A DNA stretch of 44,886 nucleotides from Treponema sp. (GTDB lineage Bacteria > Spirochaetota > Spirochaetia > Treponematales > Breznakiellaceae). Positions 24,154 through 44,745 of the stretch are shown in pieces. A program made the translations under genes and the position numbers. How positions within the stretch are numbered: position 1 is the stretch's first letter; every line of letters begins with the position of its first letter. Under the pieces are notes generated by a model, which did no database searches, was not told where the DNA came from, and saw nothing but the letters and a program-made list of their open reading frames with translations. The stretch is taken from the NCBI GenBank assembly GCA_031272575.1, contig JAISTO010000036.1, positions 1 through 44,886 on the forward strand, given 5' to 3'.

Positions 24154-24500
24154 ACCGTTTCCTTGTTCCCCCTGTTTTATTCACAACCTATTCACAATTA
24201 AAAAATGAAAATACTATACACAAAATAACTCTGTTTCGTATATGAGCATTTTCATTACTAATAAATGAAAAACAAAACAATATAACTCTTTACAATGTAA
24301 CGACTTATATTGTCAAGAACGCCGTTGCGATAAACAGACTGCCGCCTTGTTGATTTTCGTGGCCCCCTCCTTCCAAAAACCCGCAAAGTTATTCACAACC
24401 TATTCACAATTGTTGGATACTTGTGAAAATCGGTGAACATCTGTTTTGTCTGCATATAATATACCATAGGTTGTTTTTTTAGTCAAGGGGCGTGGGTCAG
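24154..24500. other. AT-rich region upstream of dnaA with repeated DnaA-box pairs (candidate oriC part / dnaA promoter)
   Basis: Identical 23-mers ttattcacaacctattcacaatt at 24177-24199 and 24389-24411. Each holds TTATTCACA plus cTATTCACA. About 190 bp of very AT-rich DNA lies between them. Confidence 0.65.
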
Positions 24501-24504
24501 GATG

Positions 24505-31069: not shown

Positions 31070-32767
31070 GTGCAACCGCGGCGCTTGCGGCGTGTCAATA
31101 CTAGTGTGCTATATCTTGAAAAGGATACGCTTGCGGCGCTGGTGACGGGGGCCGCGCGGAAGTATGGGGCGCTCCCCGCACTGCAAATCTACCGGGATGG
31201 CGGCGTCTACGGCGCGGTGACCTACGCGGCCTTTGCCCGCCGCGCCGCGCAGTTCGCGCTCCTCCTGCGCGGCCTGGGCTGCGGGCGGGGCGCGAAGGTA
31301 CTCATCCTGTCAGAGAACCGGCCGGAGTGGGCCTTCGCGTTTTTCGGGGCCGCGCTTGCCGGGGCCGTGGCGGTGCCCCTGCTGACGGGCTTCAGCGCGG
31401 CGCAGGTGGAAACGATTGCGGCGCACTGCGGGGCAAAGGCCATCTGCTGCGGGGCCGCGGGCCTCGAGAAGGCAATGGCTGTCGGGCTTAGTCCCATAAT
31501 CAAACTGGATTCGCTTGAGGGGGACCGCGTCTCTGTCATCCTGCATGGGGCTGAAGAGACCATGCCGCTCGCGAATGAGCCCCAGGCCCTGGAGACCGCG
31601 CTCCGTGAGGGGGATGCGTCCTGCGCGCCCGAGGACAGCGCGTCCATCATTTATACCTCCGGGACAACCGGCCGGAGCAAGGGGGTCTGCCTTTCCCACC
31701 GCAATATCCTTTTTGTGGCGCGCACGAGCCGCGCCCTCATGAAGATATACCCCCGCGACCGGCTTCTTTCGCTTATCCCCCTCGCGCACGCGTACGAGTG
31801 CAGCCTGGGCCTTGCCGCGCCGCTCCTCAGCGGGGCGTCGATTTCGTACCTCGACCGCGCCCCCGCCCCCGCCGCGCTCCTCCAGGCAATGCAGGCGCTG
31901 CGCCCCACCGCGCTCGTCAGCGTCCCGCTCTTTATCGAAAAACTCTGCCGCGCGCGCATATTCCCCCGGCTCGAAAAAAACCCGCTCTACCGCTGCCCCC
32001 TTACCCGCATCTTGGCGATCAAACTGGCGGGCTTCAGGCTCATCGGGGCGCTCGGCGGGGCCCTGCGTTTTTTCGGCGTGGGGGGCGCGCCTCTTGCCGA
32101 GGATGTGGAGCGCTTCCTGCGCACCGCGGGCTTCCCCTACTCGCCGGGCTACGGGCTCACGGAGGCCGCCCCGCTCGTGGCGGGCACCGCCCCCTACCGC
32201 TTCACGCGGGGCTCCGCCGGCCGCATCCTGGACGGCGTACAGATCCGTTTCGTCAAGGGTGATGGTCAGGCTTTCGACCTGGCGGATGGAGAGATTCAGG
32301 TGAAGGGCCCCAATGTCATGCAGGGCTACTACCATGCGGAGGAAATGACGCGCGAGGCGTTCACCAGCGACGGGTGGCTGCGCACCGGGGACACGGGTTT
32401 TATTGACAAGAAAGGCTGCCTGCACATACGCGGCCGCGTCAAGGACATTATCCTGGGGCCTTCCGGGGAAAACATTTACCCCGCGGATATCGAGTGCATC
32501 CTCAGCGCGTCCACGCTGGTCGAGGACGCGCTGGTGGTACCCGGCCCGCGCGGGGAACTGGTCGCGCTCATCGTCCTCAGCGAAAAAGCGCAGACCGCGG
32601 CCGCCGCCCTGAGCGACCGCCTCGAGGAACTGCGCCGCAAAGTGAACCAGAACCTCGCATCCTTTTCGCGCCTCGCCCGCATCGAGGTGCGCGACGCCCC
32701 CTTCGAAAAAACTCCCACGCAGAAAATCCGCCGCTTTCTGTACCGGCCCGCGGAGGCGGGCATCTGA
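31070..32767 (+). CDS. AMP-dependent synthetase/ligase (second acyl-CoA ligase paralogue)
   Basis: IYTSGTTGRSKGVCLSHRN, GYGLTEAAP, TGDTGFID. Start uncertain (GTG 31070 or GTG 31106). Confidence 0.8.
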   Translation: MQPRRLRRVNTSVLYLEKDTLAALVTGAARKYGALPALQIYRDGGVYGAVTYAAFARRAAQFALLLRGLGCGRGAKVLILSENRPEWAFAFFGAALAGAVAVPLLTGFSAAQVETIAAHCGAKAICCGAAGLEKAMAVGLSPIIKLDSLEGDRVSVILHGAEETMPLANEPQALETALREGDASCAPEDSASIIYTSGTTGRSKGVCLSHRNILFVARTSRALMKIYPRDRLLSLIPLAHAYECSLGLAAPLLSGASISYLDRAPAPAALLQAMQALRPTALVSVPLFIEKLCRARIFPRLEKNPLYRCPLTRILAIKLAGFRLIGALGGALRFFGVGGAPLAEDVERFLRTAGFPYSPGYGLTEAAPLVAGTAPYRFTRGSAGRILDGVQIRFVKGDGQAFDLADGEIQVKGPNVMQGYYHAEEMTREAFTSDGWLRTGDTGFIDKKGCLHIRGRVKDIILGPSGENIYPADIECILSASTLVEDALVVPGPRGELVALIVLSEKAQTAAAALSDRLEELRRKVNQNLASFSRLARIEVRDAPFEKTPTQKIRRFLYRPAEAGI

Positions 32768-32799
32768 AGCGGGGGGGCCGGGGGCACAGAGGATGCCCC

Positions 32800-32911
32800 G
32801 TCATTCCGCGGCCTGGAAACGGGACCTGAGTGCCATAGGCGCGTCAGTTCGTAGAACTGCGTGCGCGGTGAACGCGCCGCGTTCAACGCGCCCCCTCTCC
32901 CCCGCGGAATC
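32800..32911. repeat. REP-like element, long form, at the core/accessory boundary
   Basis: gtcattccgcgg (32800-32811) and ccgcggaatc (32902-32911) are inverted termini. The interior begins cctggaaacgggacctgag and ends ccccctctccc, as in 9776-9847. Confidence 0.65.
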
Positions 32912-32971
32912 TGCCCGCCGCTGTGATCCCCGAAGATGATAACTTGCGATAGCCAATCACCATGTTGTCCA

Positions 32972-33382
32972 TTATCTTTGTGGCGCATAGATTCCATTTG
33001 AAAAGGTGACAAGAGCAGGTTTGTCTTTCGTCACAAGTTCAAGATTGAAAAACAATTCTTTCAGAGTATCAAGAAGGACAGTATTCACTGTCAGCATATT
33101 GATTTTTTGACCGTCTAACTTTTTCAAACGGTCAGCATTATTCAAGAGTGATTTTTCAAATACTGAAAAATCACTCAACCGTGCGCCCCTGCTGTTCATG
33201 TTCCATGCAGACAGAGTCACATAGACCAATTCAATAAACTCATATGAGAGTTTATCCCCAGTGAAATGGAACACCTGACGATACAGGTACCAGCCTGGAT
33301 CAAGCGGTCGATACTCCTTCGCCGTAATTTCCAGAGTTTTTGCGCGAAGATCAGCATTTTCAAAAATGCTTAAATCTTTCAT
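32972..33382 (-). CDS. hypothetical protein (136 aa), last gene of the small-ORF cluster
   Basis: ORF preceded by the conserved leader element and AAGGAG. No motif recognised. Confidence 0.5.
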   Translation of the reverse strand: MKDLSIFENADLRAKTLEITAKEYRPLDPGWYLYRQVFHFTGDKLSYEFIELVYVTLSAWNMNSRGARLSDFSVFEKSLLNNADRLKKLDGQKINMLTVNTVLLDTLKELFFNLELVTKDKPALVTFSNGIYAPQR

Positions 33383-33388
33383 TCCATT

Positions 33389-33424
33389 CTCCTTTCCGGC
33401 GCATAAGCCCGCGCCGGTGGGCTT
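33389..33424 (-). repeat. conserved structured leader element, copy 1
   Basis: Minus strand AAGCCCACCGGCGCGGGCTTATGCGCCGGAAAGGAG ends in the SD of the 32972..33382 gene. Confidence 0.8.
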
Positions 33425-33478
33425 AGTTCCGCTGCCCCGACCTTTCGGTCGGGAGCAGTTGCCATCCTCCCCCAGCGG

Positions 33479-33904
33479 CTACGCTCCAGCGGCCAGTTGC
33501 TCTTTGAGCCACTGCATGGTTTTGCCCTGGTTTTTCCCCTGCAGCGATAACTCGTACTTCAATGCTGGCAGTAAGTACTCGTTATACTTCTTGCCGGTGA
33601 GAAAGATAAACACGTCTTTTTCGGTGTTTGTTACCTTTGCCAGTTGGGCAAGCACTTTCTGTGCCCAGTCCCGCCGTTCAGCCGCCTTTTTGGTATTGAG
33701 CGTCTCGTCATACGGCTCAATGACCTTGTCCAGCGACAGCAGACCATGCTTCGCGGAAAGCACGAAAATGCGCGAGTCATCCCCTTTGGTTTGCTTCCGC
33801 GCATACGCCAGCGCCATCTTGAAGCGCGGACTGGTGTACATATCCGCCGCTTTCACCTTCTTGCCGCATTTCTGCTTACCGCAAGAAATGAGAAACTGTT
33901 TCAT
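33479..33904 (-). CDS. DUF6884-like protein (141 aa)
   Basis: The pattern ISCGKQK ... FVLSAKHGLLSLDKVIEPYDETL matches my recollection of the DUF6884 family. Not verified. Confidence 0.5.
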   Translation of the reverse strand: MKQFLISCGKQKCGKKVKAADMYTSPRFKMALAYARKQTKGDDSRIFVLSAKHGLLSLDKVIEPYDETLNTKKAAERRDWAQKVLAQLAKVTNTEKDVFIFLTGKKYNEYLLPALKYELSLQGKNQGKTMQWLKEQLAAGA

Positions 33905-33910
33905 ACGAAA

Positions 33911-33946
33911 CTCCTTTCCGGCGCTTAAGCCCGCGCCGGTGGGCTT
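33911..33946 (-). repeat. conserved structured leader element, copy 2
   Basis: Minus strand AAGCCCACCGGCGCGGGCTTAAGCGCCGGAAAGGAG. Confidence 0.8.
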
Positions 33947-33958
33947 TGGCTTTGCCGA

Positions 33959-34690
33959 TCAAATGACCTTATCGCAGCCACTGCGCATTGCACAGTGTTC
34001 ACAGTCAGGCTTGGTCGGATGGCAGCATTCCCTGCCAATCTCAAAACAGGCAAAATCTATAAGCCCGGGAAATTCAGGCGAAATTTCGCGGGCTTTATGG
34101 ATGACGGTTTCAATCTTCGCCCCCTTTGGAACGCACCCAAGCCGCGTCATAACACGCCGTACATGAGTGTCCACCGATATGTCGATGGAGTAATAATCAG
34201 AAAGAGGCACCTTGAAATGCCTGACAAGCAGATTCGCCGCCATTGTGGCGATTTTGGGACCAGCCCCTTTGAACTCAAGAAACCTGCCGACAAGAGCCGC
34301 GCTGCTTGGTGTGTTTGCCCATATCTTTGCGGCGTTACCGTCGTACTTGTTCTTGATGTCCTGAACACCGCAGTAAAAGATGTCAGCCATCTTTTCGTTA
34401 AACCTGTGCAGGCTGTTTTCAACAAAAAGGCGGACATATTCATCCTTGCTTATCGAAGACAATTCAGCAATTGTCTCCTTGCCAGTCAGAGAAGATACCC
34501 GGTAAGGTATTTCCCACGCTTTCTCGTACTTGATCTGCCTGTCCATAAGACAAGCGAGAACAAAACGATGCGGAAAGTGTTCAAGGTCAGAGACGAAAGC
34601 ATCCGCCGCTTCGTCCTTCGTGAACGGTTCGAGCAGAGCGTCATTTTTGAAACGCTCTCGTCCAATTTTGAGCAGTAACTCAGTGTTCAT
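33959..34690 (-). CDS. HhH-GPD / endonuclease III-superfamily Fe-S DNA glycosylase-like protein
   Basis: HhH motif FKGAGPKIATMAANLL with Lys, catalytic-Asp context VDTHVRRV, and an exact EndoIII/MutY cluster spacing C-x6-C-x2-C-x5-C (CHPTKPDCEHCAMRSGC). Start ATG 34690 lies 7 nt after AAGGAG. Confidence 0.8.
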   Translation of the reverse strand: MNTELLLKIGRERFKNDALLEPFTKDEAADAFVSDLEHFPHRFVLACLMDRQIKYEKAWEIPYRVSSLTGKETIAELSSISKDEYVRLFVENSLHRFNEKMADIFYCGVQDIKNKYDGNAAKIWANTPSSAALVGRFLEFKGAGPKIATMAANLLVRHFKVPLSDYYSIDISVDTHVRRVMTRLGCVPKGAKIETVIHKAREISPEFPGLIDFACFEIGRECCHPTKPDCEHCAMRSGCDKVI

Positions 34691-34697
34691 GTGCATA

Positions 34698-34733
34698 CTC
34701 CTTTCCGGCGCATCAAGCCCGTACCGGTGGCTT
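34698..34733 (-). repeat. conserved structured leader element, copy 3 (most diverged)
   Basis: Minus strand AAGCCACCGGTACGGGCTTGATGCGCCGGAAAGGAG. Confidence 0.75.
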
Positions 34734-34770
34734 TGCTTTCCGCCGCCGCTATGGACGGCGGAAATACCCC

Positions 34771-35148
34771 TCAACTGAAGGGCTTCTCGATTGCGTCGTA
34801 AATTCCTGGCCATGTCCAGATGACGCCGCGTTCGAGGTCTTCGGGAAGAGTCGGAACGTGTTCTGGCCCTCCGCTTGCGTTAGGATCAACAAGCCCGCTC
34901 CCGCATCGTCCGGTGTTCTTGTCCACACAGAGCGCATTGAGACAAGGTACTTTTTGCTCGTTGCACTTTTTGCCGATCTCACCAGCAATATGTCCAACAC
35001 CACGGCCTTGTCCATGTTGTCCTTTCGGAGATCCCACGCCAATCTGATCGCCAAGTTCACTGTAGGTGATCACTTTTTTAGCGTGAGCCGTCTTCACCAG
35101 AATCTCCCACGCCTTGTTGAGGACATTCGGGTCTTCTGTTTTGTTCAT
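34771..35148 (-). CDS. MGMT/ATL-like DNA-binding (winged-helix) domain protein, 125 aa
   Basis: ITYSELGDQIG...GRGVGHIAGEI...VPCLNAL parallels the TYGELA...ARAVG...PCHRV layout of alkyltransferase DNA-binding domains. The His-Arg of PCHR is replaced by Leu-Asn. Weak call. Confidence 0.45.
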   Translation of the reverse strand: MNKTEDPNVLNKAWEILVKTAHAKKVITYSELGDQIGVGSPKGQHGQGRGVGHIAGEIGKKCNEQKVPCLNALCVDKNTGRCGSGLVDPNASGGPEHVPTLPEDLERGVIWTWPGIYDAIEKPFS

Positions 35149-35154
35149 CACGAA

Positions 35155-35191
35155 CTCCTTTCCGGCACCTCAAGCCCGCGCCGGTGGGCTT
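35155..35191 (-). repeat. conserved structured leader element, copy 4
   Basis: Minus strand AAGCCCACCGGCGCGGGCTTGAGGTGCCGGAAAGGAG. Confidence 0.8.
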
Positions 35192-35524
35192 TACCTTACA
35201 GGAAACGCCGCAAGCCCCATGCCTGCGTGCCCGTCTCCTGTCCCGCTTTGCATACCCGCGTCCAATCCCCTGTCGTGTTGCCGCGCGGTTCAATGGCCGT
35301 TCCTGAAAGAAGGCGAGCAGCCTGTCGGTCTTGTTGATTTTTGCGACAAACCGCAAAAATCTCTATTGCCGGGGCTGCTTTCGGCATGGCAGGGAATGGC
35401 GCGGTTATGCAAACTCCTTTGCAAGTTTAACCTCTTTGCGGAGGAATGGTGTTTTGTCCGCACACCTTGAGCTGCGAACCGCTCCCATCATCATTTTTAC
35501 CGTATCACCTCCTTTCCCTCCCTC

Positions 35525-38500
35525 TCAAAACGCCCGCACAGGCCGAACCTGACCAGGAATGTCCTTCATGATGTAAGACAAGATCAGGTCATTCGAACTG
35601 CCATCGGAATTCAGACACCATGCATAGCTTCTGTTGCTCTCGGATGAAGACGCGTATATGGGCCAAATATTCGTAAAGTTTCCAGCCCCCTGCTGTTTCA
35701 GATTGATGTTCATCTGATTTATCTCATCCTTGCTCGGCAGGAACCAGTCATCGTAACCGCCGTACTCGTAATCCGCACAGGCCTGCGCCGCAAGGTGTAA
35801 GCCAGAACCTAACTGAGGTGTGCCATGATTATGCGTTACCAATGCAGCTGTGTTTGTTGCGCCTGTACCGATATCTGTCCCGGTACCGCCACACAATGTG
35901 CCATATCCACCCCACTGGTATGCTGTTGCCAAATCGGCAGGCGCGGCTTCGAGGTAATGGCAAGTAATGCTGTCAGAAACAAAACCGGTGGTGTCGGCAT
36001 AGAATATCCATCCTCCCGCAGGACCAGTATCCCCTATCTGGTATGCCAGGGTTGTCTGACTCACAGCAGCACTCAATGCGCCTTCTCCTTCCGCGTTCAC
36101 CGCGCTTACCTTGTAGTAATAAGTTGTTTCTTTTGTAAGACCAGTGTCGGTATACGAAGTTTCAGTAATGCCTGAAGTAATAGGAGTAGTGTAGGGACCA
36201 TCAACGCTGTCTGCCCGATAGACCGTGTAGGTGTCTGCACCAGTCACCGCATTCCAGTTAAGTACTAATATGCTGCTCAGGGATTGCGCGGCCGCGGTTA
36301 ATCCATCAGGCGCGCCAGGTTTTGTGATTGTGTTCACTACGGTACTGTAATCGGTGACCACTGTATCGTGCCATGCCTTCACCCACACATAGTAAGTCGT
36401 TCCGTTTGAAAGACCGGTAAGCGTATGCGGACTGGTCACCACGCTCAGCCTCACCGCCGCACTAGAGATATTTGCGGTGTGATAATACAGGTCATACGCG
36501 GCGGCGCCGTCCGTGCTGTCCCACGAAACCTGTATGCTCTCGTCAGATAAAGTAACCGCGTTTACCCCGGTGGGCGCGGCAGGAGCGGGAACTCCGCTTG
36601 CGCTTGCGCTCAATGGGCTTTCCCCCAGAGCGTTCTTCGCTTTCAACCACACATAGTACAGCGTCCCGATGTTAAGATCGGCAATGACATGGGGTATCGT
36701 GACATCGCTTTCCTTCGTTGCGGCAGTGCTGTCATTCGTTGTACTGTAATAGAGATCATATCCTGTCGCGCCATCAACCTCTGTCCATGTTACCATGAGT
36801 CCACCCACACCCGCTGGGGTTACCTCGATCGCGGTTGGTGCATTTACGCGAGTCTTCCCGCTCGCGCTCGCGAACGCGCCGGTTATCGCGCCGTGCAGTG
36901 CCCGCACCCACACCGAGTAAGTCGTGTTCGCGGCGAGGCCGCTGAGCGTCGCGTTTATTGCCGCGGCCTCGACGCTCTGCGCCGTGTCGGGGCTGCTTCC
37001 GGTGCTGTAACGCACCTCGTACTTTTCCGCGCCGGCTATGGCGTCCCACGAGACCGCGAGTGAGGTATTGCTGAGCGGCGCGGCCTGCACGTTGGCGGGC
37101 GCGGGCGCGGTTGTGGTCACCTCTATCGTGTCCGTCCACAGCGCGCCCCCGTTGTTGAACGTGAGCGTGAGCGGCAGCACGGTTCCCATGGGGCAGCCGG
37201 CGCTTGCGCTAAAGGTGAAGGTTCCATATAGGCTTCCCCCGTAAAAGAACACTATATTCGCGTTCGTGCTCTGCGTGCTGTTGAGCGTTTTATAGTAACC
37301 GCCGGACAGATTTCCGACCGACAGTATAGTATTTTGACCGATGGTAATATACTCACTCTCTGACGAAAGCGTCACCTGGGCGCTGGAGATAGTGGTCGTT
37401 GTATTGTTCTTTATACGAATGTCCAAATACGCTGACGCGCCGGGAGTCACATTAACGATATTCTTATCGATGAGCTCCTTCAAAGCAAAACCGGTTATCG
37501 ACAGGGGATAGGGCGCGGTGTTTCCCAGCGTTACGGTGCAGCAGTCAATATCGTTTTCATGGATGTCCGCCATAATCTGCCCGTCAAGAAGAGTCGCGTC
37601 CGCCTCGGTATCATTGGGTTCATTGATCTTGAACGCGCTAAACGAGGAGAAGTTCGTCTGCGGCATCGTGTTTATGCCGAGTGAATAGATCGCCTCGCTG
37701 GATTCGGCGGTGCCGGAAATTACGGCAAGGTAAGGCGCTGACGACCAGGGCATGGTCACGCTTGAACGATAGACCGTCCCGTCATGCGCGGTGCTGAACC
37801 GACACGCGCCGGAGAGCGGGCTCAGAATAAGGCCCGCCACGGGGTACTGTGACGCGGCGTTGAAAGTTACCGGCGTTTTGAAAAAGCGCACGGACACCGA
37901 GTCCGTCCAGGTTTTGGGATGCTGCGGATCGGTCGTGGCATCGGTTATCGTAATGGAGATTTTTTTGAAGACCGCATCCGCGTCAACCGGCGTACAGCCG
38001 ATGGTTATTTCGCTGGTGGACACGGTCTCGCCCGGCTTAAGGGTCCCGGTGCAGAGCCGATTCGATATGCCGGACTGCGTTTGCGTTGCAAGTCCGTCCT
38101 CAAACGCAAGCGTGTAACTCGGCGCGTAGCAGCCCGCGTTTCCCGTGTTGGTCACGTTGATGGTGAAGGTGAACGTGTCGGCCCCCGCGTACCCATACCG
38201 CGCGTTGACCGACGTGCCTGCCGGCGCGATGCGCGCTGGCGCGATGCGCGCCTTGAAGTTAACGCCCCCGCCCGTGAGGTGGAGCGTCCCGAGGTGGTCA
38301 CCGTTCGCGCCGGGCGTTACGCGCGCGGTGTCACCTGCGGCGCGCAGTTCGTACTCGTCCCCCGGGATAAGGCCCTGCGCGGTAAAGGTGCCGTCGCTTG
38401 CGGTTGTTGCCGTCACCGTGTTGGCCGCGTCGTTCAGGTTGACCAGAGTCACCTCGAGGCCTGCGACGCTCCGCCCCGCGCCGGCGTCAGCGAGTGTGCC

Positions 38501-38806
38501 GCTCACCTGCGCGTTGGCGACCCGCGAGGCGTAGAGGAAGCACGCGCTGCCCGCATTCGTCACCCTGATGACCCGCGCGGACTGCTTTTCGAGGCGCGGC
38601 GTCCCGGGGTAGGATTCGCCGTTTACGGTGATGGTATTGCTGGTAATGTACCACGCTTCGTCCGCGTCTATGCGGAGCCATTCACCCCAAAACTCGCTCC
38701 CGTAGCGGGGGCCGGTTTCGGAGCCGGTAGGGGTTTTACACGCCGCCCCGCAGAGGACGGCGAGCGCGAGGAGGAGTCCCCGTTTTACGCGATTTTTTGC
38801 AGGACG
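35525..38806 (-). CDS. giant surface lipoprotein: CarboxypepD_reg-like domain, four Fn3 repeats, C-terminal DUF1566-like domain; 5' end interrupted by C11 tract
   Basis: The track ORF 35525..38563 starts at GTG. The frame stays open upstream to the tract and there encodes RPAKNRVKRGLLLALAVLCGAACK (lipoprotein signal). Four repeats of about 90 aa have the Fn3 pattern (L.V.W....GA..Y.+YY....Y.V.V.A). The tail YDDWFLPSKDEINQM resembles DUF1566. Confidence 0.8.
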   Translation of the reverse strand, partial: RPAKNRVKRGLLLALAVLCGAACKTPTGSETGPRYGSEFWGEWLRIDADEAWYITSNTITVNGESYPGTPRLEKQSARVIRVTNAGSACFLYASRVANAQVSGTLADAGAGRSVAGLEVTLVNLNDAANTVTATTASDGTFTAQGLIPGDEYELRAAGDTARVTPGANGDHLGTLHLTGGGVNFKARIAPARIAPAGTSVNARYGYAGADTFTFTINVTNTGNAGCYAPSYTLAFEDGLATQTQSGISNRLCTGTLKPGETVSTSEITIGCTPVDADAVFKKISITITDATTDPQHPKTWTDSVSVRFFKTPVTFNAASQYPVAGLILSPLSGACRFSTAHDGTVYRSSVTMPWSSAPYLAVISGTAESSEAIYSLGINTMPQTNFSSFSAFKINEPNDTEADATLLDGQIMADIHENDIDCCTVTLGNTAPYPLSITGFALKELIDKNIVNVTPGASAYLDIRIKNNTTTTISSAQVTLSSESEYITIGQNTILSVGNLSGGYYKTLNSTQSTNANIVFFYGGSLYGTFTFSASAGCPMGTVLPLTLTFNNGGALWTDTIEVTTTAPAPANVQAAPLSNTSLAVSWDAIAGAEKYEVRYSTGSSPDTAQSVEAAAINATLSGLAANTTYSVWVRALHGAITGAFASASGKTRVNAPTAIEVTPAGVGGLMVTWTEVDGATGYDLYYSTTNDSTAATKESDVTIPHVIADLNIGTLYYVWLKAKNALGESPLSASASGVPAPAAPTGVNAVTLSDESIQVSWDSTDGAAAYDLYYHTANISSAAVRLSVVTSPHTLTGLSNGTTYYVWVKAWHDTVVTDYSTVVNTITKPGAPDGLTAAAQSLSSILVLNWNAVTGADTYTVYRADSVDGPYTTPITSGITETSYTDTGLTKETTYYYKVSAVNAEGEGALSAAVSQTTLAYQIGDTGPAGGWIFYADTTGFVSDSITCHYLEAAPADLATAYQWGGYGTLCGGTGTDIGTGATNTAALVTHNHGTPQLGSGLHLAAQACADYEYGGYDDWFLPSKDEINQMNINLKQQGAGNFTNIWPIYASSSESNRSYAWCLNSDGSSNDLILSYIMKDIPGQVRPVRAF

Positions 38807-39140: not shown

Positions 39141-40495
39141 ATGGCTAATTTTAGGCAAGGGCAAGTTATCCCCCTGGCGGGGGGGGGGGCGAGGCAGAAA
39201 TTGTTCGCACTTTGGGGGAGGGCGGACAAGGCACGGTGTATGAGGTTCGCGTTGGCGGTAAGCCTTATGCGCTGAAATGGTACCACGCGGGAAAACTGAA
39301 GGACAAAGCGGCCTTTCGCGAAAACCTTCGATGCAATATCGAAGAGCCGGAGCGGAGCATGGCGGATTGTCCCATGTTTCTGTGGCCCAAGTTCCTGACT
39401 GAGGAACAGGACGGCAGTTTCGGGTATGTGATGGACCTGCGGCCGCCGGACTACACTGATTTTCCGGCGATTCTGAATCGCAAGGACCGAAAGGGGCAGC
39501 GGGTGGAGTTTGCCTCCACCGAAACAATGATCGCTGCCGCCTTGAATCTGGTGAACGCTTTCCGCGCGCTGCATCGCAAGGGGCTTTCCTACCAGGATTT
39601 AAACGACGGAAACTTCTTCATCAATATTGATACAGGAGCCGTGCTGATTTGTGACAACGACAATGTCACGCCGGACGGCGACGTAAACTCAGGCGGCATA
39701 GGGGGCAAACCCGGGTACATGGCGCCGGAAATTGTCACAGGCAAGGCGCAGCCTTCCGAGCGTACCGATTGCCATTCACTCGCGGTTGTTCTTTTCAAAT
39801 TATTCTTTCGTCATAGTCCGCTGCAAGGGGCGGCTTACGAAAAACTTCCCTGCATGACCGAAAAGCGCGAGATGGAACTGTTCGGGACGAATCCGGTATT
39901 TGTCTACGATCCGGATGATGATACAAACCGGCCGGTCAACGGCGTACACAACAATGTGATAAAACTCTGGCCGCTCTTCCCCGCGTTTTTCAAAGACGCG
40001 TTTGTTCTCTCGTTTGCTCAAGGGATGAAAGCCCCGCAGCGCCGCATCGTCGAAAACGAGTGGCAAAAAATCCTCGTGCGTCTCCGCGACGAATGGTATG
40101 TTACCTGCGTGTCCTGCGGGCGCGCCATTTTTCTGCACCCGGAAAACAAAGAGGCGGGGCTTCGCTGCGGCGGCTGCGGGTCACAGTCTACCTATCCGCG
40201 AAGCCTTTCTATCAAGAAGGGCGCACTCGTGTACACGGTGCCGCTCTTCCCCGCAAAAAAACTCTACGACTGGCACACCACCGAGTCGAGTGAAGACTTC
40301 ATCACCATAACGGGCGAAGTGGTGATGAATAAAAACAATCCCTCGCTTTGGGGAATCAAGAATTGCTCAAACGAGGCGTGGCGCATGGTCACCCCCGACG
40401 GCACAGCAAAAGAAGTGCCCGCCGAGGGCGCTGTTCCTATCGGGGCGGGCGTTAAGGTCATCTTTAACGGCCTTGACGGAATAATAACTCAGTAA
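39141..40495 (+). CDS. Ser/Thr protein kinase with C-terminal zinc ribbon; frameshifted at G11 tract (track ORF 39212..40495)
   Basis: AGGAG plus 5 nt precedes ATG 39141. After the tract a different frame encodes GEAEIVRTLGEGGQGTVYEVRVGGKPYALKWY (Gly-rich loop and Lys), HRKGLSYQDLNDGN, GKPGYMAPE and CVSC...CGGC. A +1 change in the tract joins the two frames. Confidence 0.8.
39179..39189. repeat. homopolymer G11
   Basis: Counted by hand: 2 G ending 39171-39180 plus 9 G starting 39181. It begins in codon 13 of the kinase reading frame that starts at ATG 39141. Confidence 0.9.
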
Positions 40496-40510
40496 AGGAG
40501 AATCTCAAAA

Positions 40511-41242
40511 ATGAGTGACGCAATTTACGGCAATGTGGAGGGCATCATACGCAGGCAGATGGTGCTGTTCTTTTTAATTGACACCTCCGGCAGTATGCAG
40601 GGGCAGAAAATCAGCGCGGTCAATACGGCCATCCGCGAAGTGGTACCGGAACTGGCGGACATCGGGGGCGCGGACATCGATCTGAAGATCGCGGTGCTTG
40701 AGTTTTCGATGGGCTGCAAATGGCAGAACCCCGCGGGGCCCGTATCGGTGGACGATTTCATGTGGAACAACCTCAGCGCGGAAGGCGGCACCGATATGGG
40801 AACGGCCTTTCGGGAATTGAACGAGCGCCTCTCGCGCAACTCGTTTCTAAAAGCGCCGTCGGCATCGGTCGCGCCGGTGATACTGCTCCTTTCGGACGGC
40901 CAGCCGAGTGACGATTACCAAAGCGCGCTTGCCGCCCTCAAAAACAACAACTGGTTTAAGAGCGCGGTAAAAGTCGCGCTCGCTATTGGCAGTGACGCTG
41001 ACTGCAATGTACTCGCGGAATTCACCGGCACCAGCGAAACCGTGCTTAGCGCCTATACGCCGGATATCCTGCGCAAGATGATACGCACCGTGTCGATTAC
41101 CTCCGCGCAGATCGGTTCCCGCAGCCAGCCCTTACAGGAAGGGGATATTGTGAGCAAGCAGGACACCATGGCAGCGGAGATCAAAAATCTCAAGCAGACG
41201 GATCCGGATTACAATTCCGCGGATACGCTGGAAGGCTGGTAA
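40511..41242 (+). CDS. von Willebrand factor A domain protein (TerY-like)
   Basis: MIDAS motif in FFLIDTSGSMQG, later GGTDMG and LLSDGQPSD. AAAGGAG SD. Confidence 0.85.
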   Translation: MSDAIYGNVEGIIRRQMVLFFLIDTSGSMQGQKISAVNTAIREVVPELADIGGADIDLKIAVLEFSMGCKWQNPAGPVSVDDFMWNNLSAEGGTDMGTAFRELNERLSRNSFLKAPSASVAPVILLLSDGQPSDDYQSALAALKNNNWFKSAVKVALAIGSDADCNVLAEFTGTSETVLSAYTPDILRKMIRTVSITSAQIGSRSQPLQEGDIVSKQDTMAAEIKNLKQTDPDYNSADTLEGW

Positions 41243-42105
41243 TGTACCTCAGTTTTAGCGCCCGCGCACAGGGGGACAGCCACAAGGAAAAGGACATCCC
41301 CTGCCAGGATGCGGTCTTCACGTACGTCGATCAAAAGACCGGCGGCCTCGCGATTGTGGCAGACGGCCATGGAAGCGAAAAACACTTTCGCAGCGACGTG
41401 GGATCTGCACTTGCGGTTACTGTTGCGCATACGACAATCGTGGAGTTCCTTCATATATTGAATGATGGCTCCATGCGCCGCGGTGCATTTGACCAGCGCT
41501 ATACCGATGAAATCACCATGATGCAGGAGCAACTGGCGCAGCTTGAACGGACGATTATTACGCGGTGGCGTTCCGCGGTACTGCAGCATTTTGCGGCACA
41601 CCCGCTCAGCGAGCGTGAACAGGCACTCTGTACGCGGGAAAACCTTACGCTCACCGATGAGGATGCACAGGTCCGTGTGTACGGTACGACTCTTATTGCC
41701 GCACTCGCGCATAGCAAGTTGTGGTTTGTCATTCAGATCGGGGACGGCAAATGCGTAGTGCTTGATGACGAAGGCACTCCGTATTTCCCGCCGGAACTCG
41801 ACGATGAAAGTCTTGCCGGAGGCCAGACGACTTCCCTGTGCGACTCGGATGCGGCAGGTCATTTTCGCTGTGATTTCGGCTTCGAGCGCATTAAGGGCAT
41901 TACCGTGGCCACCGACGGCGTAAGCGACTCTTTTTTGCCCGAGGAGTATCTCAAACTGAATGCCCGTCTCTTTGCCGATTTTCTCGCTAACCACAAGAAG
42001 GCGCAAAAGGGGGTGGAGCAGTCTATTGCGGTATGGTCAACAAAAGGCTCCCGCGATGATGTATCCATGGCGGGAGTCTTTTACAAAAATGGTTTATTGG
42101 AGTGA
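41242..42105 (+). CDS. PP2C-family protein phosphatase
   Basis: IPCQDAV, LAIVADGHGS and VATDGVSD motifs. The start overlaps the vWA stop (TAATG). Confidence 0.8.
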   Translation: MYLSFSARAQGDSHKEKDIPCQDAVFTYVDQKTGGLAIVADGHGSEKHFRSDVGSALAVTVAHTTIVEFLHILNDGSMRRGAFDQRYTDEITMMQEQLAQLERTIITRWRSAVLQHFAAHPLSEREQALCTRENLTLTDEDAQVRVYGTTLIAALAHSKLWFVIQIGDGKCVVLDDEGTPYFPPELDDESLAGGQTTSLCDSDAAGHFRCDFGFERIKGITVATDGVSDSFLPEEYLKLNARLFADFLANHKKAQKGVEQSIAVWSTKGSRDDVSMAGVFYKNGLLE

Positions 42106-42120
42106 AAGGAGAAGTATAGC

Positions 42121-43368
42121 ATGAACACGAATTTGTTAACCGCGATAAAGGCGTTGGCGGCGAAGGGCGCTGATGTGTTTAGTGACCTGAAGCGCGTTGA
42201 CGAAAGTCTGCCGGTGTTTGCCAACAAGGAGGCTGCGGCAGAGCGCAGGGCTTTTCTTGCGGTGCTGGCATCGGGGCTTCCCGCGAAGTTGCGCGAGACC
42301 AAGGATACCGCGGCGCGCGCAAGTCTGGTCAACCGGGCCGCGCATTCGCTTTCCGGCGCGAACGAGGCGCCGCCAGCGCTGGCGCGGGAAATCGCCGCGC
42401 TCGTCGAGGCCCTCTGTCCCGCAAAAAGCGCCGCTGCCTCGCCCCCCGCGCCGCCGGTACCGCCGCGGCAGGTTCCGGCCGCGGGGGCGCCGCTGCCGCA
42501 AAGTCCCGAGGCGGCCAAGCCGCCAGCGCGGGCCCTGCGGCTGAGCCGAAAAACGGTGTTTTTCGCTCTTGCGGCAACGGGAGGTGGGCTCGTTACCGAA
42601 AGTATCTGTGAGTGCATACCGTGGTTTAACCAGCATGGGGGGACTTTTTGGTCGGTCATTGTTGAGACTGCCGTATGGTTTGGGGTGATTGCACTGGGCT
42701 TAATCGCGTGTCTTCTCGCGGCCCAGAGTGGGTATCTGAAAAAGCCGCCGAGCGCCCCCACTGTGGTAAAGGCGGTGCTTTTGGGAGTCCTTTCCGGCGC
42801 GGCCGCTGGCGGGCTTGCACAAGCGGTGTTTGCATACACTTCGCAGATTTCAACGGCAGTAGAAATCGTCAGCCGCATACTCTGCTGGGGCTTTGCGGGC
42901 GCGGGGGTAGGGCTTGGTACGAGTTTCTTCGTTCCCAACTATCCGATAAAGCGCTCCCTGCCCGCCGGACTCGTTGGGGGGCTTTTGGGGGGCGTGCTGT
43001 TCCGCGCCTCATTCGGCATTATGCCGGAAGGCATCGCCCGGGTAGTGAGCATCGCCATTCTGGGGCTGTGCATAGGCGCGACTATCGCCATAGCCGAGGA
43101 AATCCTCCGTGAAGCATGGATCACGGTTGACTGGGGGCACAACGAACGCGTGAATGTCACGCTCGGTACCAGGCCGGTGGTACTTGGTTCCGCGCCGGAA
43201 GCGGACATCTTTCTTTCGCGGCAGAACTATCCTGCGGTTGCGCTTGTCGTCAGTATAGACGGACAAAAAGTGATTGTCGACAACAAACTGAACGGCCAAC
43301 GAACCGAAATGGCAAACGGCAGCGAGTTGAGTTTGGGGACAGTCAAAGTTACCGTACACAAACGGTAA
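42121..43368 (+). CDS. membrane protein: shared N-terminal domain, Pro/Ala linker, multi-TM region, C-terminal FHA domain
   Basis: Hydrophobic segments between about residues 150 and 330. The C-terminus VVLGSAPEADIFLSRQNYPAVALVVSIDGQKVIVDNKLNGQRTEMANGSEL has the FHA pattern. SD AAAGGAG. Confidence 0.75.
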   Translation: MNTNLLTAIKALAAKGADVFSDLKRVDESLPVFANKEAAAERRAFLAVLASGLPAKLRETKDTAARASLVNRAAHSLSGANEAPPALAREIAALVEALCPAKSAAASPPAPPVPPRQVPAAGAPLPQSPEAAKPPARALRLSRKTVFFALAATGGGLVTESICECIPWFNQHGGTFWSVIVETAVWFGVIALGLIACLLAAQSGYLKKPPSAPTVVKAVLLGVLSGAAAGGLAQAVFAYTSQISTAVEIVSRILCWGFAGAGVGLGTSFFVPNYPIKRSLPAGLVGGLLGGVLFRASFGIMPEGIARVVSIAILGLCIGATIAIAEEILREAWITVDWGHNERVNVTLGTRPVVLGSAPEADIFLSRQNYPAVALVVSIDGQKVIVDNKLNGQRTEMANGSELSLGTVKVTVHKR

Positions 43369-43383
43369 CAAAAGGAGCATACT

Positions 43384-44745
43384 ATGAACACAGTGTTATT
43401 GACCGTCATTCAAAAAATGGTCGCTGAGTCAGGCGAATCGGTACTTGCTGACTCGCGGCGTGTTGCAGGTTACCTTGCGGATTTTGCCGCCAGGGAGCCG
43501 AAGGCGCAGCGGAACACGCTGGTGAAGTGCCTGGAACAGGGGGCTTACGCCGCGCTGAAAAGGGCTGCTCCCCATGAGCGCGGCGCGGTGAAGGAGCGGC
43601 TGGCGCGCAGGCTGCATACCGATGAGGGGTTTGATCGGTCTCTCTGTGAAGACAGCGTCAACCTGCTGGCCGTTGTGTTGTTCGGTCACGGCGAAGCGGC
43701 TGCGGGGGAAACCGCGGCGGCAATTCCGTCTACGGGGGACGAGTGGGTAACGGTACCGGAAGCGCGGAAGGCGGCGTTGGCGCAGGGGGATGCGGGCAAC
43801 AGGCCAATACCGCAAACTGCCGTGGCGAGGAAGGAACGGAAACGGTACTTGTCAGTGGGGATAGCGGCTTCCGTGCTTGTGCTTGGACTGGGTGTTGTCT
43901 TTTGGATGAACCGATACAACAATGCGGGCAACGCATCCCACCTTGGTCCAACTTTGGACATGGTGCGCATACAGGGTGGCACGTTCACGATGGGGAGCCC
44001 GTCGTCGGAGCCGGATCGTGAGGACGATGAGGTGCAGCATCGGGTGACGCTGAGTTCGTTTTACATGGGGAAGTACGAGGTCACTCAGAAGGAGTGGCAG
44101 GCGCTCATGGGGACGAATCCCAGTTCCTTCAAGGGTGACAACTTGCCGGTGGAGTGCGTGAGTTGGTACGATGCGGTGGAGTACTGTAACGCGCGTAGCA
44201 AAAAAGAAGGGCTTACGCCTGCGTACACGATAAATAAGACTCGACAGGATCCAAACAACACCAGCAGTTATGACAGTCTCAAGTGGACGGTGACCTGGAA
44301 CCGGAAGGCGAACGGGTACCGGTTGCCGACGGAGGCGGAGTGGGAGTACGCCTGCCGCGCCGGGACGACGGGGCCGTTCAACACGGGGAACAACATTACG
44401 ACGAGCCAGGCGAACTATAACGGGAACTATCCCTACAACGGGAACGCGAAGGGGCAGTATCGGGAGAAGACGACGGCGGTGGGGAGTTTCCAGCCCAATG
44501 CCTGGGGCTTGTACGATATGCATGGCAATGTCTGGGAGTGGTGCTGGGACTGGTACGGGAATTACTCAAGCGGCGCCCAGACGGACCCCGAAGGCCCAAC
44601 GGGCCCCGCCTCTTCGTGGTCGCGCCGCGTTCGCCGGGGCGGCAGTTGGTACAACAGCGGCCAGTACCTGCGTTCGGCCAACCGGGGCTACTACAGCCCG
44701 GGCAACCGGCTCTACTACCTCGGTTTTCGGCTGGTGCGTCCCTGA
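43384..44745 (+). CDS. membrane-anchored FGE-sulfatase (SUMF1/C-type-lectin fold) domain protein with DGR-VR-like C-terminus
   Basis: Shared N-terminal domain, one TM (YLSVGIAASVLVLGLGVVFWM), then GGTFTMGSP, YRLPTEAEWEYACRAG, GNVWEWCWDWY and RGGSW...GFRLVRP. Confidence 0.85.
   Translation: MNTVLLTVIQKMVAESGESVLADSRRVAGYLADFAAREPKAQRNTLVKCLEQGAYAALKRAAPHERGAVKERLARRLHTDEGFDRSLCEDSVNLLAVVLFGHGEAAAGETAAAIPSTGDEWVTVPEARKAALAQGDAGNRPIPQTAVARKERKRYLSVGIAASVLVLGLGVVFWMNRYNNAGNASHLGPTLDMVRIQGGTFTMGSPSSEPDREDDEVQHRVTLSSFYMGKYEVTQKEWQALMGTNPSSFKGDNLPVECVSWYDAVEYCNARSKKEGLTPAYTINKTRQDPNNTSSYDSLKWTVTWNRKANGYRLPTEAEWEYACRAGTTGPFNTGNNITTSQANYNGNYPYNGNAKGQYREKTTAVGSFQPNAWGLYDMHGNVWEWCWDWYGNYSSGAQTDPEGPTGPASSWSRRVRRGGSWYNSGQYLRSANRGYYSPGNRLYYLGFRLVRP

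Follow-up and report, generated by a model that had tools for sequence, protein, structure and literature searches.

Four small, mutually unrelated open reading frames (ORFs) in an acquired island of the chromosome of an uncultured termite-gut Treponema are each preceded by a near-identical element of 36–37 nt, which can fold into a GC-rich hairpin and ends in a Shine–Dalgarno (SD) sequence with an ATG 6–7 nt further on. Its edges are sharp and its geometry relative to the start codon is fixed, the ORFs behind it form a mosaic of differing origin, and it is missing from a homologous gene pair elsewhere and recurs before other ORFs. With a probability of roughly 0.4, we read it as a portable structured ribosome-binding leader that would mark the boundaries of cassettes and supply short homology for gene exchange, with putative roles in translation, RNA stability and recombination.

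How acquired promoterless genes become expressible in bacteria is an open question of practical interest, whether in integrons, in defence islands or in the accessory regions of phages, and the array described here is a compact natural example, with one module of hairpin, strong SD and fixed spacing standing before genes of different origin. One copy sits between ORF1 and ORF2, which are directly adjacent genes in a relative. If the element is an insulating translation leader, nature would here have its own version of the standardised ribosome-binding-site parts of synthetic operons; should genes also be exchanged at it, the idea that regulatory repeats serve as recombination handles, as in the PeSLs of T4-type phages, would extend to a bacterial chromosome.

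Copies, edges and folding of the element

The window, that is, the whole 44,886-nt (45-kb) stretch of DNA analysed, holds four direct copies, all on the minus strand and 86–97% identical to each other, at the positions where a sequence-only reading had placed them. They are given here with the scores of a covariance model (CM) built from the four copies.

35155–35191, minus strand: leader copy 4, 37 nt, before ORF1; AAGCCCACCGGCGCGGGCTTGAGGTGCCGGAAAGGAG, then TTCGTG and ATG; 77.7 bits
34698–34733, minus strand: leader copy 3, 36 nt, before ORF2; then TATGCAC and ATG; 69.2 bits
33911–33946, minus strand: leader copy 2, 36 nt, before ORF3; then TTTCGT and ATG; 74.4 bits
33389–33424, minus strand: leader copy 1, 36 nt, before ORF4; then AATGGA and ATG; 76.6 bits

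Pairwise identity inside the element is 0.86–0.97 (mean 0.91), and in the adjoining 36 nt on each side it is 0.53, which is background; the edges of the repeat are therefore sharp, and coding sequence lies outside it. The 12-mer GCCGGAAAGGAG has 4 exact occurrences in the window, solely at the four copies, and 6 matches against 0.48 expected when one mismatch is allowed; the 36-mer element has 0 matches in shuffles of the sequence. Copies 1 and 2, which are neighbours, are one base apart, and copy 3 is the most diverged: the 5′ arm of its hairpin A has lost a C, and that of its hairpin B carries a CG>TA change. A linker of 2–3 nt is different in every copy (AT, AA, GAT and GAG), at least 30 other positions are fixed, and perfect identity between most copies spans just 20–21 nt. 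The copies are spaced 522, 787 and 458 nt from start to start and the intervals are protein-coding genes, as opposed to the non-coding spacers of ~30–40 nt in a CRISPR array, which rules out such an array.

All 4 copies end at their 3′ side in AAAGGAG, and the ATG follows after 6, 6, 7 and 6 nt in copies 1–4. The ATG starts of ORF1–3 are backed by full-length homologues. AAGGAG at 6–7 nt is the strongest SD class among the ~30 genes of the window, where many host genes have a weak SD or none.

Two hairpins can be drawn from each copy and, as the sequence-only reading had proposed, they are mutually exclusive: hairpin A pairs AAGCCC with GGGCTT, hairpin B pairs CCGGCGC with GCGCCGG, and their arms follow the order X–Y–X′–Y′. 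Hairpin B is the more stable by 4–7 kcal/mol, at −13.4 to −16.1 kcal/mol as against −9.2 kcal/mol for hairpin A in copies 1, 2 and 4. Both are weak in copy 3 (B −6.5, A −4.9 kcal/mol), where hairpin B carries one mismatch and one U–G pair; copy 4 retains hairpin B via a G–U pair. The weakening of B in copy 3 and the G–U pair in copy 4 had been read correctly from the letters. That hairpin B touches the SD is true only of an extended fold: B proper has its 3′ end 3 nt before AGGAG, but the minimum-free-energy fold adds two C–G pairs across a 1×3 internal loop and so reaches the GG of the SD. The fold thus amounts to one 7-bp stem plus 2 outer pairs, with just the GG of AGGAG paired and a mean unpaired probability of 0.38–0.75 over that motif. 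No compensatory change is present in helix A or B across the four copies. Given the energy gap, the marginally paired SD and this lack of compensatory change, the two-state translational switch suggested earlier is not supported by these computations. The loop of hairpin B, GGGCTT, and the loop of hairpin A, ACCGGCGC, are both conserved across the copies.

The GC-rich stems of the element have no T-run after them on the sense strand, and a reading as terminator or attenuator was dropped for lack of a U-tract; a terminator on the antisense strand was likewise dropped, with a mere TTT after hairpin A. An H-type pseudoknot is permitted on paper by the arm order, but the third loop of 2–3 nt, judged by eye, seems too short for a 6-bp stem, and this reading too was set aside.

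Genes and non-coding DNA of the island

The array lies in an island at ~32.93–35.52 kb, a lower-GC mosaic in the host chromosome near dnaA. Its features, in the direction of reading, are as follows.

35192–35524, minus strand: non-coding head, 333 nt between an FN3/Lcl_C gene and copy 4
35268–35311, minus strand: 44-nt block in the head, recurring with 4–6 mismatches on contigs of 1139 nt (run X2), 996 nt and 168 nt (both run X1)
34771–35148, minus strand: ORF1, 125 aa, uncharacterised, a conserved pair with ORF2
34737–34764, minus strand: stable spacer hairpin after the ORF1 stop, TTTCCGCCG...CGGCGGCGGAAA
33959–34690, minus strand: ORF2, 243 aa, like HhH-GPD / endonuclease III–MutY DNA glycosylases, with a C-terminal Cys cluster
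33479–33904, minus strand: ORF3, 141 aa, DUF6884, YaaA-like; PADLOC candidate PDC-M57A
33432–33458, minus strand: spacer hairpin after the ORF3 stop, CTGC-T-CCCGACC GAAA GGTCGGG-GCAG
32934–33382, minus strand: ORF4, pseudogene of a 210–220-aa all-alpha family

ORF1 has no match in Pfam, NCBIfam, PADLOC or PHROG, and its AF2 model is poor (pLDDT 60). In a locus from another metagenome, a homologue with 79% identity immediately precedes an ORF2 homologue (56% identical at the amino acid level), and the two genes are adjacent across a 4-nt gap from which the element is absent. ORF2 itself matches TIGR03252 (1e-12) and endonuclease III in the PDB (1e-6), with nth and mutY models under their cut-offs; viral contigs contain no relatives of ORF1 or ORF2. 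ORF3 matches Pfam PF21818 (2e-39) and PDLC04712 (7e-44), and its homologues are found in other operon types, with WYL regulators and GIY-YIG proteins. ORF4 is intact over residues 1–132 (32972–33382 reads as 136 aa) and has decayed beyond them through the loss of ~58 codons and a frameshift, leaving a C-terminal remnant at 32934–32996. The model of its family is confident (pLDDT 96) and has no structural neighbour in the PDB; one homologue stands alone in its locus beside a tyrosine recombinase, bounded by ~190-nt repeats with the ends TAAC...GTTAGGC. GC3 also differs along the array, at 0.39 in ORF4, 0.68 in ORF3 and 0.55 in the long reading frame containing ORF2, with host genes mostly higher (0.61–0.83). 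The island brings together a glycosylase-like HhH-GPD protein and its conserved partner with a DUF6884 protein and an uncharacterised all-alpha family, a content that suggests a set of DNA-base-recognition functions.

The differing origins and GC3 of the ORFs and the element-free junction between the ORF1 and ORF2 homologues back modular cassette assembly, one of the interpretations first offered for the repeat. Extra stable hairpins in two spacers had also been pointed out and are present; the 96-nt leader that includes the hairpin at 33432–33458 folds at −42 kcal/mol (z = −3.8).

No consensus sigma-70 promoter is found in the head, and no −35/−10 match in or beside any copy. Since the intergenic spacers of the array are free of promoter-like and terminator-like sites on the sense strand, it is plausible, as judged from the sequence, that the array is read as one transcript. 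Among the ORFs of the window there is no match to a recombinase (Phage_integrase or IntI), no RAYT or other transposase and no phage gene, nor does the window match phage DNA. Further multi-copy short repeats flank the island at 32755–32919 and 35415–35489.

Occurrence outside the window

Beyond the window, the leader is carried by at least three further contigs in X1 and X2, the two metagenome runs that hold the host genome (~3 such contigs in a metagenome where the depth of the host genome is ~11x), with small indels in the linker. Two downstream flanks are readable, TTTTCG-ATG and TTTTTG-ATG, before different ORFs; these extra contexts are known from 30-nt flanks of short contigs, one of them a low-agreement (0.58) consensus. 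All six readable contexts thus have the same orientation and 6–7 nt to the ATG. The contigs with extra copies measure 1666, 996 and 468 nt in X1 and 1139, 350 and 241 nt in X2. On one of the contigs that share the 44-nt head block, a leader copy lies 38 nt downstream of the block. A strain variant on one X2 contig keeps the upstream flank of copy 4 and the element as far as CCGGAAA and then diverges. Both this breakpoint within the element and the same leader before other ORFs of the same metagenomes add to the case for modular assembly. The flanks of the extra contigs have no match in the window or in the fetched loci, and no leader-to-leader joint of the kind left by deletion or circle formation is seen in the X1 and X2 contigs, which can hide rare forms.

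Four other termite-gut runs lack the element. Scans of GTDB genomes, IMG/VR and JGI metagenomes with exact and degenerate patterns return no true copy: scattered single matches occur in about the number expected by chance, and those inspected lie in coding sequence (for example K-P-T-G-A-G-F codons) or in unrelated organisms. Phage and plasmid DNA give no match to the element. The CM, which had been called for as a check, recovers just the four copies in the window; a 15.5-bit match at 42774–42824 is antisense within a gene and was judged to be chance. The CM has no match at E ≤ 1 among 33 spirochaete loci, and in the homologue loci the window's own copies are its only matches better than E = 1. 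Rfam 15 has no match at E ≤ 1 in 32000–36500, and at the gathering score the window gives 3 tRNAs, 0 of them in the island. The thought that the element might occur nowhere else is therefore right for the large reference collections and wrong for X1 and X2, where it recurs at other loci; its distribution points to a lineage-specific element.

Readings of the element and known systems

As a portable leader, the element would be a GC-rich hairpin 3 nt upstream of a maximal SD, AAAGGAG, 6–7 nt from the ATG, placed before every gene of a small accessory-gene array that was probably assembled horizontally in the chromosome. The array would be read as a single transcript starting in the head region, and each leader would turn its downstream ORF into an independent translation unit. 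The self-contained hairpin would stop the strong SD from pairing with foreign upstream sequence, and could also shield RNA ends after processing. Near-identical 36-nt copies that bracket ORFs would further act as short, portable DNA homology through which ORFs may be gained, lost or swapped, with a precedent in the PeSLs of T4-type phages. Against the leader reading, the X1 and X2 contigs show no joint between two copies, a perfect identity of 20–21 nt is marginal for homologous recombination, and a plain role as hairpin and SD leaves unaccounted for the conserved loops next to a variable linker and the exact 6–7-nt placement before genes of different origin, even between the prior neighbours ORF1 and ORF2.

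The element has its closest analogues in the PeSLs and in two motifs of cluster K mycobacteriophages, the start-associated sequences (SAS) and their extended form (ESAS). For SAS/ESAS, a role in translation initiation or as a binding site has been proposed (Pope et al. 2011, PMC3203893). Like the element, they are a conserved asymmetric motif that contains AGGAG and lies, in a single orientation, 3–7 bp before the start codons (for the most part ATG) of genes unrelated to each other. The extended form has inverted repeats immediately upstream, and the motifs belong to a single lineage and are missing from the wider host genome (PMC3203893). The matching feature here, AAAGGAG 6–7 nt before ATG, is present in 4/4 copies and in the 2 readable extra contexts (one at 0.58 agreement). 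The sequence itself is unlike the SAS consensus 5′-GGGATAGGAGCCC, and the setting is a bacterial chromosomal island with 4 copies and a few elsewhere, as opposed to the non-structural half of temperate cluster K phage genomes with 11–19 copies; the inverted repeats of ESAS are of 17 bp without RNA-pairing support, whereas those here are of 6–7 bp, perfect and in two overlapping pairs. PeSLs are short conserved intergenic stem-loop modules before each small non-essential ORF of a variable region, with copies that bracket ORFs of different origin, and recombination between them has been shown to delete, insert and circularise ORFs, for which the authors liken them to integrons (Arbiol et al. 2010, PMC2839356). 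Unlike the element, which has neither promoter nor U-tract, PeSLs combine a functional terminator with a strong early promoter of the sigma-70 type; they are phage elements served by a phage recombination system, and their recombination products are known, whereas none is seen for the element in the X1 and X2 contigs.

In another reading, the element would be a shared binding site or translational switch through which one trans-acting factor co-regulates all its carriers, be it a small RNA, an RNA-binding protein or a repressor that recognises the 7-8-7 inverted repeat in DNA. Conservation does exceed the needs of a hairpin, GGGCTT and the hairpin A loop being kept where the linker varies; the arm order gives two exclusive folds; leader and conserved 44-nt upstream block recur together at other loci, as in a regulon; and the geometry, an AGGAG motif 3–7 bp from the start with inverted repeats just upstream, is that of SAS/ESAS (PMC3203893). 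We nevertheless consider this reading unlikely, because hairpin B exceeds A by too much for a balanced switch, the SD is partly paired at most, neither helix has a compensatory change, no candidate factor was found, and ORF1 is not tied to the element, since it pairs with ORF2 elsewhere without it. More doubtful still is a recombination site of an unrecognised integron-like system, in which a cassette would be an ORF plus one element, the recombinase would be encoded elsewhere and the site would also provide the ribosome-binding site. The architecture fits, with promoterless small ORFs of mixed origin separated by similar imperfect palindromes as direct repeats, one per ORF and in one orientation, and CCGGCGC-N8-GCGCCGG and AAGCCC-N8-GGGCTT have the arm–spacer–arm form of recombinase core sites; the strain-variant breakpoint falls inside the element, a head block shared with another locus would suit an attI-like platform, and an ORF4 homologue does lie between ~190-nt repeats beside a tyrosine recombinase. 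[quoted passage not shown] An attC site proper is ruled out by the 36–37-nt length of the element, by the lack of AAC and GTT on either strand of 4/4 copies and by the lack of an integrase in the window, and the element also differs in lying at the 5′ end of the ORF with the SD included. Termite-gut treponemes are, moreover, reported to be integron-free (PMC3607928), the element stands between ORF1 and ORF2, a pair that stays together elsewhere, central regions vary between copies, and the X1 and X2 contigs have no excision or deletion joints. The variant in which a miniature cassette-capture system of termite-gut treponemes, integron-like in action but unrelated, uses the element as its attachment site, with an unlinked recombinase and the head as platform, is a long shot; if true, a perfect SD at a fixed distance would make captured ORFs translatable at once, unlike with a classical attC.

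It is improbable, too, that the element is a REP- or MITE-like intergenic repeat, whether selfish or neutral, which spread in the lineage and came to lie upstream of genes by accident. It shares with REPs and REPINs an imperfect palindrome of ~35 nt, an extragenic or intercistronic location and lineage specificity (PMC3116915, PMC3337134); it is short and sharp-edged, a single lineage has it at several loci while it is lacking elsewhere, and other multi-copy short repeats do lie beside the island. But REPs are high-copy, commonly form inverted pairs, have no tie to start codons and no SD, and go with a RAYT gene (PMC3116915, PMC3337134), whereas the window has 4 copies, all direct, with at most a handful beyond them where REPs number tens to hundreds, inverted pairs are never seen, the SD looks functional, and orientation and distance to the ATG are the same in six contexts (one from the 0.58-agreement consensus). 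The element is unlikely to be a REP element, and it belongs to no Rfam family. The idea that a recent local duplication or gene conversion left the copies behind, functionless in themselves, is largely refuted: copies 1 and 2, adjacent and one base apart, would suit it, but the flanks, coding sequences included, are unrelated at background identity, which excludes a duplication that took flanking coding sequence along; the linker has diverged in all four copies with at least 30 other positions fixed, and the element also occurs at unlinked loci.

Another upstream box in a spirochaete host is that of the Borrelia erp/ospE-ospF-elp genes, which has been linked to recombination and has strongly diverged coding sequences behind it. 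It is a promoter/operator region, longer than the element, that prophage plasmids carry once for each operon, whereas the 36-nt element recurs as a leader between cistrons of what is probably a single operon. A variable series of Borrelia genes related to ospE and ospF is described as a family with a shared upstream homology box (Marconi et al. 1996, PMC178399, cited in PMC10016077).

A repeated leader before four start codons

The leader, a 36–37-nt element ending in the Shine–Dalgarno (SD) sequence AAAGGAG, is confirmed in the sequence as four direct copies on the minus strand, placed where the sequence-only reading had put them.

Leader copies in the window, with evaluated energies of hairpins A and B
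33389-33424, minus strand: copy 1, before ORF4, AAGCCCACCGGCGCGGGCTTATGCGCCGGAAAGGAG; B −15.3 kcal/mol, A −9.2 kcal/mol
33911-33946, minus strand: copy 2, before ORF3, as copy 1 except that AA replaces AT; B −16.1 kcal/mol, A −9.2 kcal/mol
34698-34733, minus strand: copy 3, before ORF2, AAGCCACCGGTACGGGCTTGATGCGCCGGAAAGGAG; B −6.5 kcal/mol, A −4.9 kcal/mol
35155-35191, minus strand: copy 4, before ORF1, AAGCCCACCGGCGCGGGCTTGAGGTGCCGGAAAGGAG; B −13.4 kcal/mol, A −9.2 kcal/mol

The 3′ dodecamer, GCCGGAAAGGAG, occurs exactly 4 times in 44.9 kb, always within a leader copy, and 6 times in the window with one mismatch allowed (0.48 expected); the full leader pattern has zero occurrences in shuffled sequence. 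Pairwise identity is 0.86–0.97 inside the leader and ~0.53 in the 36 nt on each side, the background level for the aligner used, so the leader is sharp-edged and no part of a larger duplication. An ORF's ATG follows 6, 6, 7 and 6 nt after the four copies, and the ATG starts of ORF1–3 agree with homologues. A range of 1–8 nt had been proposed; the ATGs at 6–7 nt stand, and in-frame starts 1 nt past the SD are judged too close for use. SD and spacing lie at the strong end of usage in the window genome.

Hairpins A (AAGCCC with GGGCTT, arms X and X′) and B (CCGGCGC with GCGCCGG, arms Y and Y′) can both be drawn, and they are mutually exclusive because the arms follow the order X–Y–X′–Y′; this part of the earlier proposal holds, as do the spacer hairpins that it named, at 33432-33458 and 34737-34764. 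A two-state switch is not supported, with B well below A in energy and no covariation. In the minimum-free-energy fold, B is extended by two C–G pairs touching the GG of AGGAG over a 1×3 internal loop; because just that GG is paired, the SD is only partly occluded, and the mean unpaired probability of AGGAG, computed in context, is 0.38–0.75. Across the four copies, helix B carries two one-sided changes (U–G, G–U) and one mismatch, helix A is affected only by the single-base deletion in copy 3, and neither has a two-sided pair change. Shuffles score as well as the observed leader structure in a covariation test, which four near-identical copies make uninformative in either direction. The X′–Y′ linker (2–3 nt) is different in every copy (AT, AA, GAT, GAG), and both ‘loops’, each an arm of the other hairpin, are conserved. 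On this pattern, either the two pairings or the bases as such would matter, unless the linker is a special site.

Origins of the four small genes

Among the four genes of the island (~32.93-35.52 kb), ORF1 (125 aa) has no family match, and ORF2 (243 aa) resembles HhH-GPD/endonuclease III–MutY DNA glycosylases, with a Cys cluster at the C terminus. ORF3 (33479-33904, minus strand) is a DUF6884/PADLOC PDC-M57A protein, of a YaaA-related family for which lesion binding and base flipping in DNA have been proposed (PMC11701544). ORF4 (32934-33382, minus strand) is from an uncharacterised family of 210–220 aa; it keeps residues 1–132, has lost ~133–190 with a frameshift and retains its last ~20 residues in another frame (32934-32996), so it is a pseudogene. 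The AF2 model of this family (P0006, 47 homologues; pLDDT 96, pTM 0.92) is all-helical, with no significant PDB neighbour (best Foldseek E = 1.8), and the invariant residues include Y24, R25, W60-N61-M62-N63, R65, H131, D142, K197 and D200-N201.

The sole close homologue of ORF1 (79%) lies on L008, a termite metagenome contig of 40% GC, where an ORF2 homologue (56% identical) starts 4 nt after it (L008 379-1516) with its SD within the last ORF1 codons; the two are translationally coupled. No trace of the leader was found in L008, and this adjacency without a leader makes ORF1–ORF2 an already existing two-gene module; in the window, ~80 nt lie between ORF1 and ORF2, made up of spacer hairpin, leader and 7 nt. 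ORF3 homologues (≤50% identity) occur in other operons, with WYL regulators and GIY-YIG proteins, and one ORF4 homologue stands isolated at the edge of a prophage, next to a tyrosine recombinase. The island is thus a mosaic built from three or more modules, and every ORF, the second gene of a module included, has been given the same leader with an equal distance to the ATG. Modular cassette assembly, raised as one explanation of the repeat, finds support in these mosaic origins and in the leader-free ORF1–ORF2 junction of L008; the earlier interpretation as a whole is partly supported, in its cassette-like assembly.

The two-gene module pairs an uncharacterised 125–133-aa protein with an HhH-GPD/Fe–S glycosylase-like protein. 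L008 also holds AAGGAGTAAACAAAT twice, at 772, right before the start of the ORF2 homologue, and between genes at 2154, where it precedes ATA, not ATG. In loci L012–L015, the DUF6884 gene is accompanied by a WYL regulator, a 194-aa protein, a GIY-YIG_3 protein and a 198-aa protein, usual partners from which the window gene is separated. In locus L010 (187-3053), ~190-nt repeats sharing 89% identity, with attC-like ends (...TAACAGGATTGTAAACG ... CGTTTACAACCGGAACGTTAGGC), lie on both sides of each of two genes, an ORF4 homologue and a GH28 gene; beside them is a 486-aa tyrosine recombinase that is no canonical IntI (TIGR02249 just 19 bits), and the locus may be an unusual cassette system of another termite-gut bacterium.

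Leader copies beyond the window

The possibility that the element occurs nowhere else is borne out for reference collections and fails for X1 and X2, a pair of termite-gut sequencing runs in which the window sequence is itself found. Degenerate patterns spanning the two halves of the leader, or its 3′ half, gave nothing credible in 185,579 GTDB genomes, IMG/VR and JGI metagenomes; scattered single matches, mostly in coding sequence of unrelated phyla and at about the chance number, were rejected. Rfam has no match to the leader. A covariance model of the four copies, a check proposed earlier, found zero further copies in the window, related spirochaete loci and homologue loci; the only sub-threshold match (42774-42824, minus strand; 15.5 bits, E = 0.05; CAAGCCCGCCAGCGGCCGCGCCGGAAAGGAC) is antisense in a gene and was judged to be chance. 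The X1 and X2 contigs were compared with 48–53-nt stretches around leader copies.

Further leader carriers and their readable downstream flanks
1666-nt contig of X1, with a 350-nt counterpart in X2
1139-nt contig of X2, with a 996-nt counterpart in X1
468-nt contig of X1
Flank: GGAG-TTTTCG-ATGAAACGCAAC...
Flank: GGAG-TTTTTG-ATGATGCAT... (mixed consensus, 0.58 agreement)

Depths of the carriers in X1 (7.7–10.9×) are near the ~11× of the window genome. In the two with a readable downstream flank, the leader is followed by 6 nt and then by ATG and a different coding sequence; the carriers' flanks have no match in the window or any other locus compared, and relative to the window copies their leaders carry small indels, affecting both the linker and arm X at its outer end. 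The 1139/996-nt locus shares a 44-nt block (35268-35311, minus strand) with the head, the 333-nt non-coding stretch preceding copy 4, and the block lies 38 nt upstream of the leader there versus 76 nt in the window. A 241-nt contig of X2 matches 35159-35223, which takes in a 32-nt upstream flank and the 5′ portion of copy 4 as far as CCGGAAA; beyond that point the contig continues into unrelated sequence instead of the SD and ORF1. Four other termite-gut runs of the same two studies have no leader copy at 80% likeness. The leader thus forms a family of few copies, specific to one lineage and tied to start codons, and in at least two cases it is accompanied by a common upstream block. This block contains GGAACGGCCATTGAA (35289-35303), a weak lead whose GG-N10-G spacing is presumably that of a sigma-54 −24/−12 promoter, but with GA not GC at −12.

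Readings of the leader and setting of the array

A looser analogue of the leader is the upstream homology box described for Borrelia erp genes. The nearest described elements in function and form are the SAS/ESAS of cluster K mycobacteriophages, read as binding sites or switches (PMC3203893), and the PeSLs of T4-type phages, whose short shared sequences serve for the exchange of ORFs (PMC2839356). The leader is no member of any of the three, differing in sequence, in having no promoter, in its non-phage context and in being intercistronic rather than one per operon. Also rejected as an attC site, REP element, CRISPR repeat or Rfam family, it belongs among lineage-specific, start-associated repeats on unrelated genes, an already known kind. 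From a non-exhaustive literature survey, we know of no description of a hairpin-plus-SD leader that recurs between the cistrons of a single chromosomal array, nor of one between two genes directly adjacent in a relative. The finding is real and unusual, a low-copy element of an uncultured organism.

We favour, at a rough probability of 0.4, a portable structured ribosome-binding leader that marks gene-cassette boundaries in a mosaic accessory array. The array would be transcribed as one unit, with a self-contained GC hairpin shielding each strong SD from arbitrary foreign upstream sequence; the hairpin could also protect processed RNA ends, and the identical 36-nt sequences flanking each ORF may, by analogy, provide short homology for ORF exchange. 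Behind this stand the observed repeat, its geometry and sharp edges, the mosaic ORFs, the element-free ORF1–ORF2 junction and the further start-associated copies. Its weak points are that no copy-to-copy joints were seen in the X1 and X2 contigs, and that the reading accounts neither for the conserved loop sequences nor for the exact 6–7-nt placement before unrelated starts.

The way the leader is conserved, and the head block that recurs at another locus, would also fit a shared site that a trans factor binds or uses as a switch, as for SAS/ESAS, a reading that we think unlikely, coming as it does without a balanced switch, covariation or a candidate factor. More doubtful is a recombination site of an integron-like system: the array architecture, the arm–spacer–arm form and the breakpoint inside the element in the 241-nt contig agree with one, but the leader shows none of the attC hallmarks, a recombinase was not found nearby and termite treponemes are reported to be without integrons (PMC3607928). 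Constant orientation, constant ATG distance and low copy number contradict a REP- or MITE-like selfish repeat, which we hold improbable. These three are not strictly exclusive of the portable leader. Least credible is a functionless local duplication, excluded by unrelated flanks and unlinked copies, which dispose equally of a recent duplication including flanking coding sequence.

The four small ORFs sit between a convergent AMP-binding gene (end 32767), whose closest relatives are in termite-gut Treponema MAGs (55–60% identity), and an FN3/Lcl_C gene. GC is 49–53% across this region versus ~55–67% around it; GC3 is 0.39 in ORF4, 0.68 in ORF3 and 0.55 in the long frame including ORF2, and mostly higher in host genes (0.61–0.83). 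No promoter-like or terminator-like sites were found in the spacers on the sense strand. The remaining window genes are ordinary chromosomal ones, and no integrase, transposase or phage genes were found in the window.

Features around the array
20.3-24.2 kb (20319-24504 with upstream gap), minus strand: recF-dnaN-dnaA
24154-24504: 350-nt gap 5′ of dnaA
32755-32919: palindromic MITE-like element between the AMP-binding gene and ORF4
35525-38563, minus strand: FN3/Lcl_C protein gene, 1012 aa, four FN3 domains and a C-terminal Lcl_C/DUF1566-like domain
39212-44745, plus strand: cluster of protein kinase, VWA protein, PP2C phosphatase, unknown protein and FGE-sulfatase-domain protein

The 350-nt gap is likely the replication origin, and the island lies merely ~9–11 kb from it. 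The MITE-like element has imperfect inverted arms of 29 nt (32755-32783 and 32891-32919) and a DNA fold of −55 kcal/mol (z = −3.7); in X1 its region is covered ~10× as deeply as the surroundings, and some variants have a shorter centre, which makes the element multi-copy in the community. DNA for the C-terminal domain of the 1012-aa protein (~35732-35915) exceeds 100× depth in X1 and X2, which makes the Lcl_C-type domain highly multi-copy in the community. Two ~30-nt segments of the head (35415-35489, minus strand) stand at 5–9× genome depth in both runs and are therefore short multi-copy motifs; they lie within a possible 28-aa ORF (ATG near 35494) with its own SD, AAAGGAGG.
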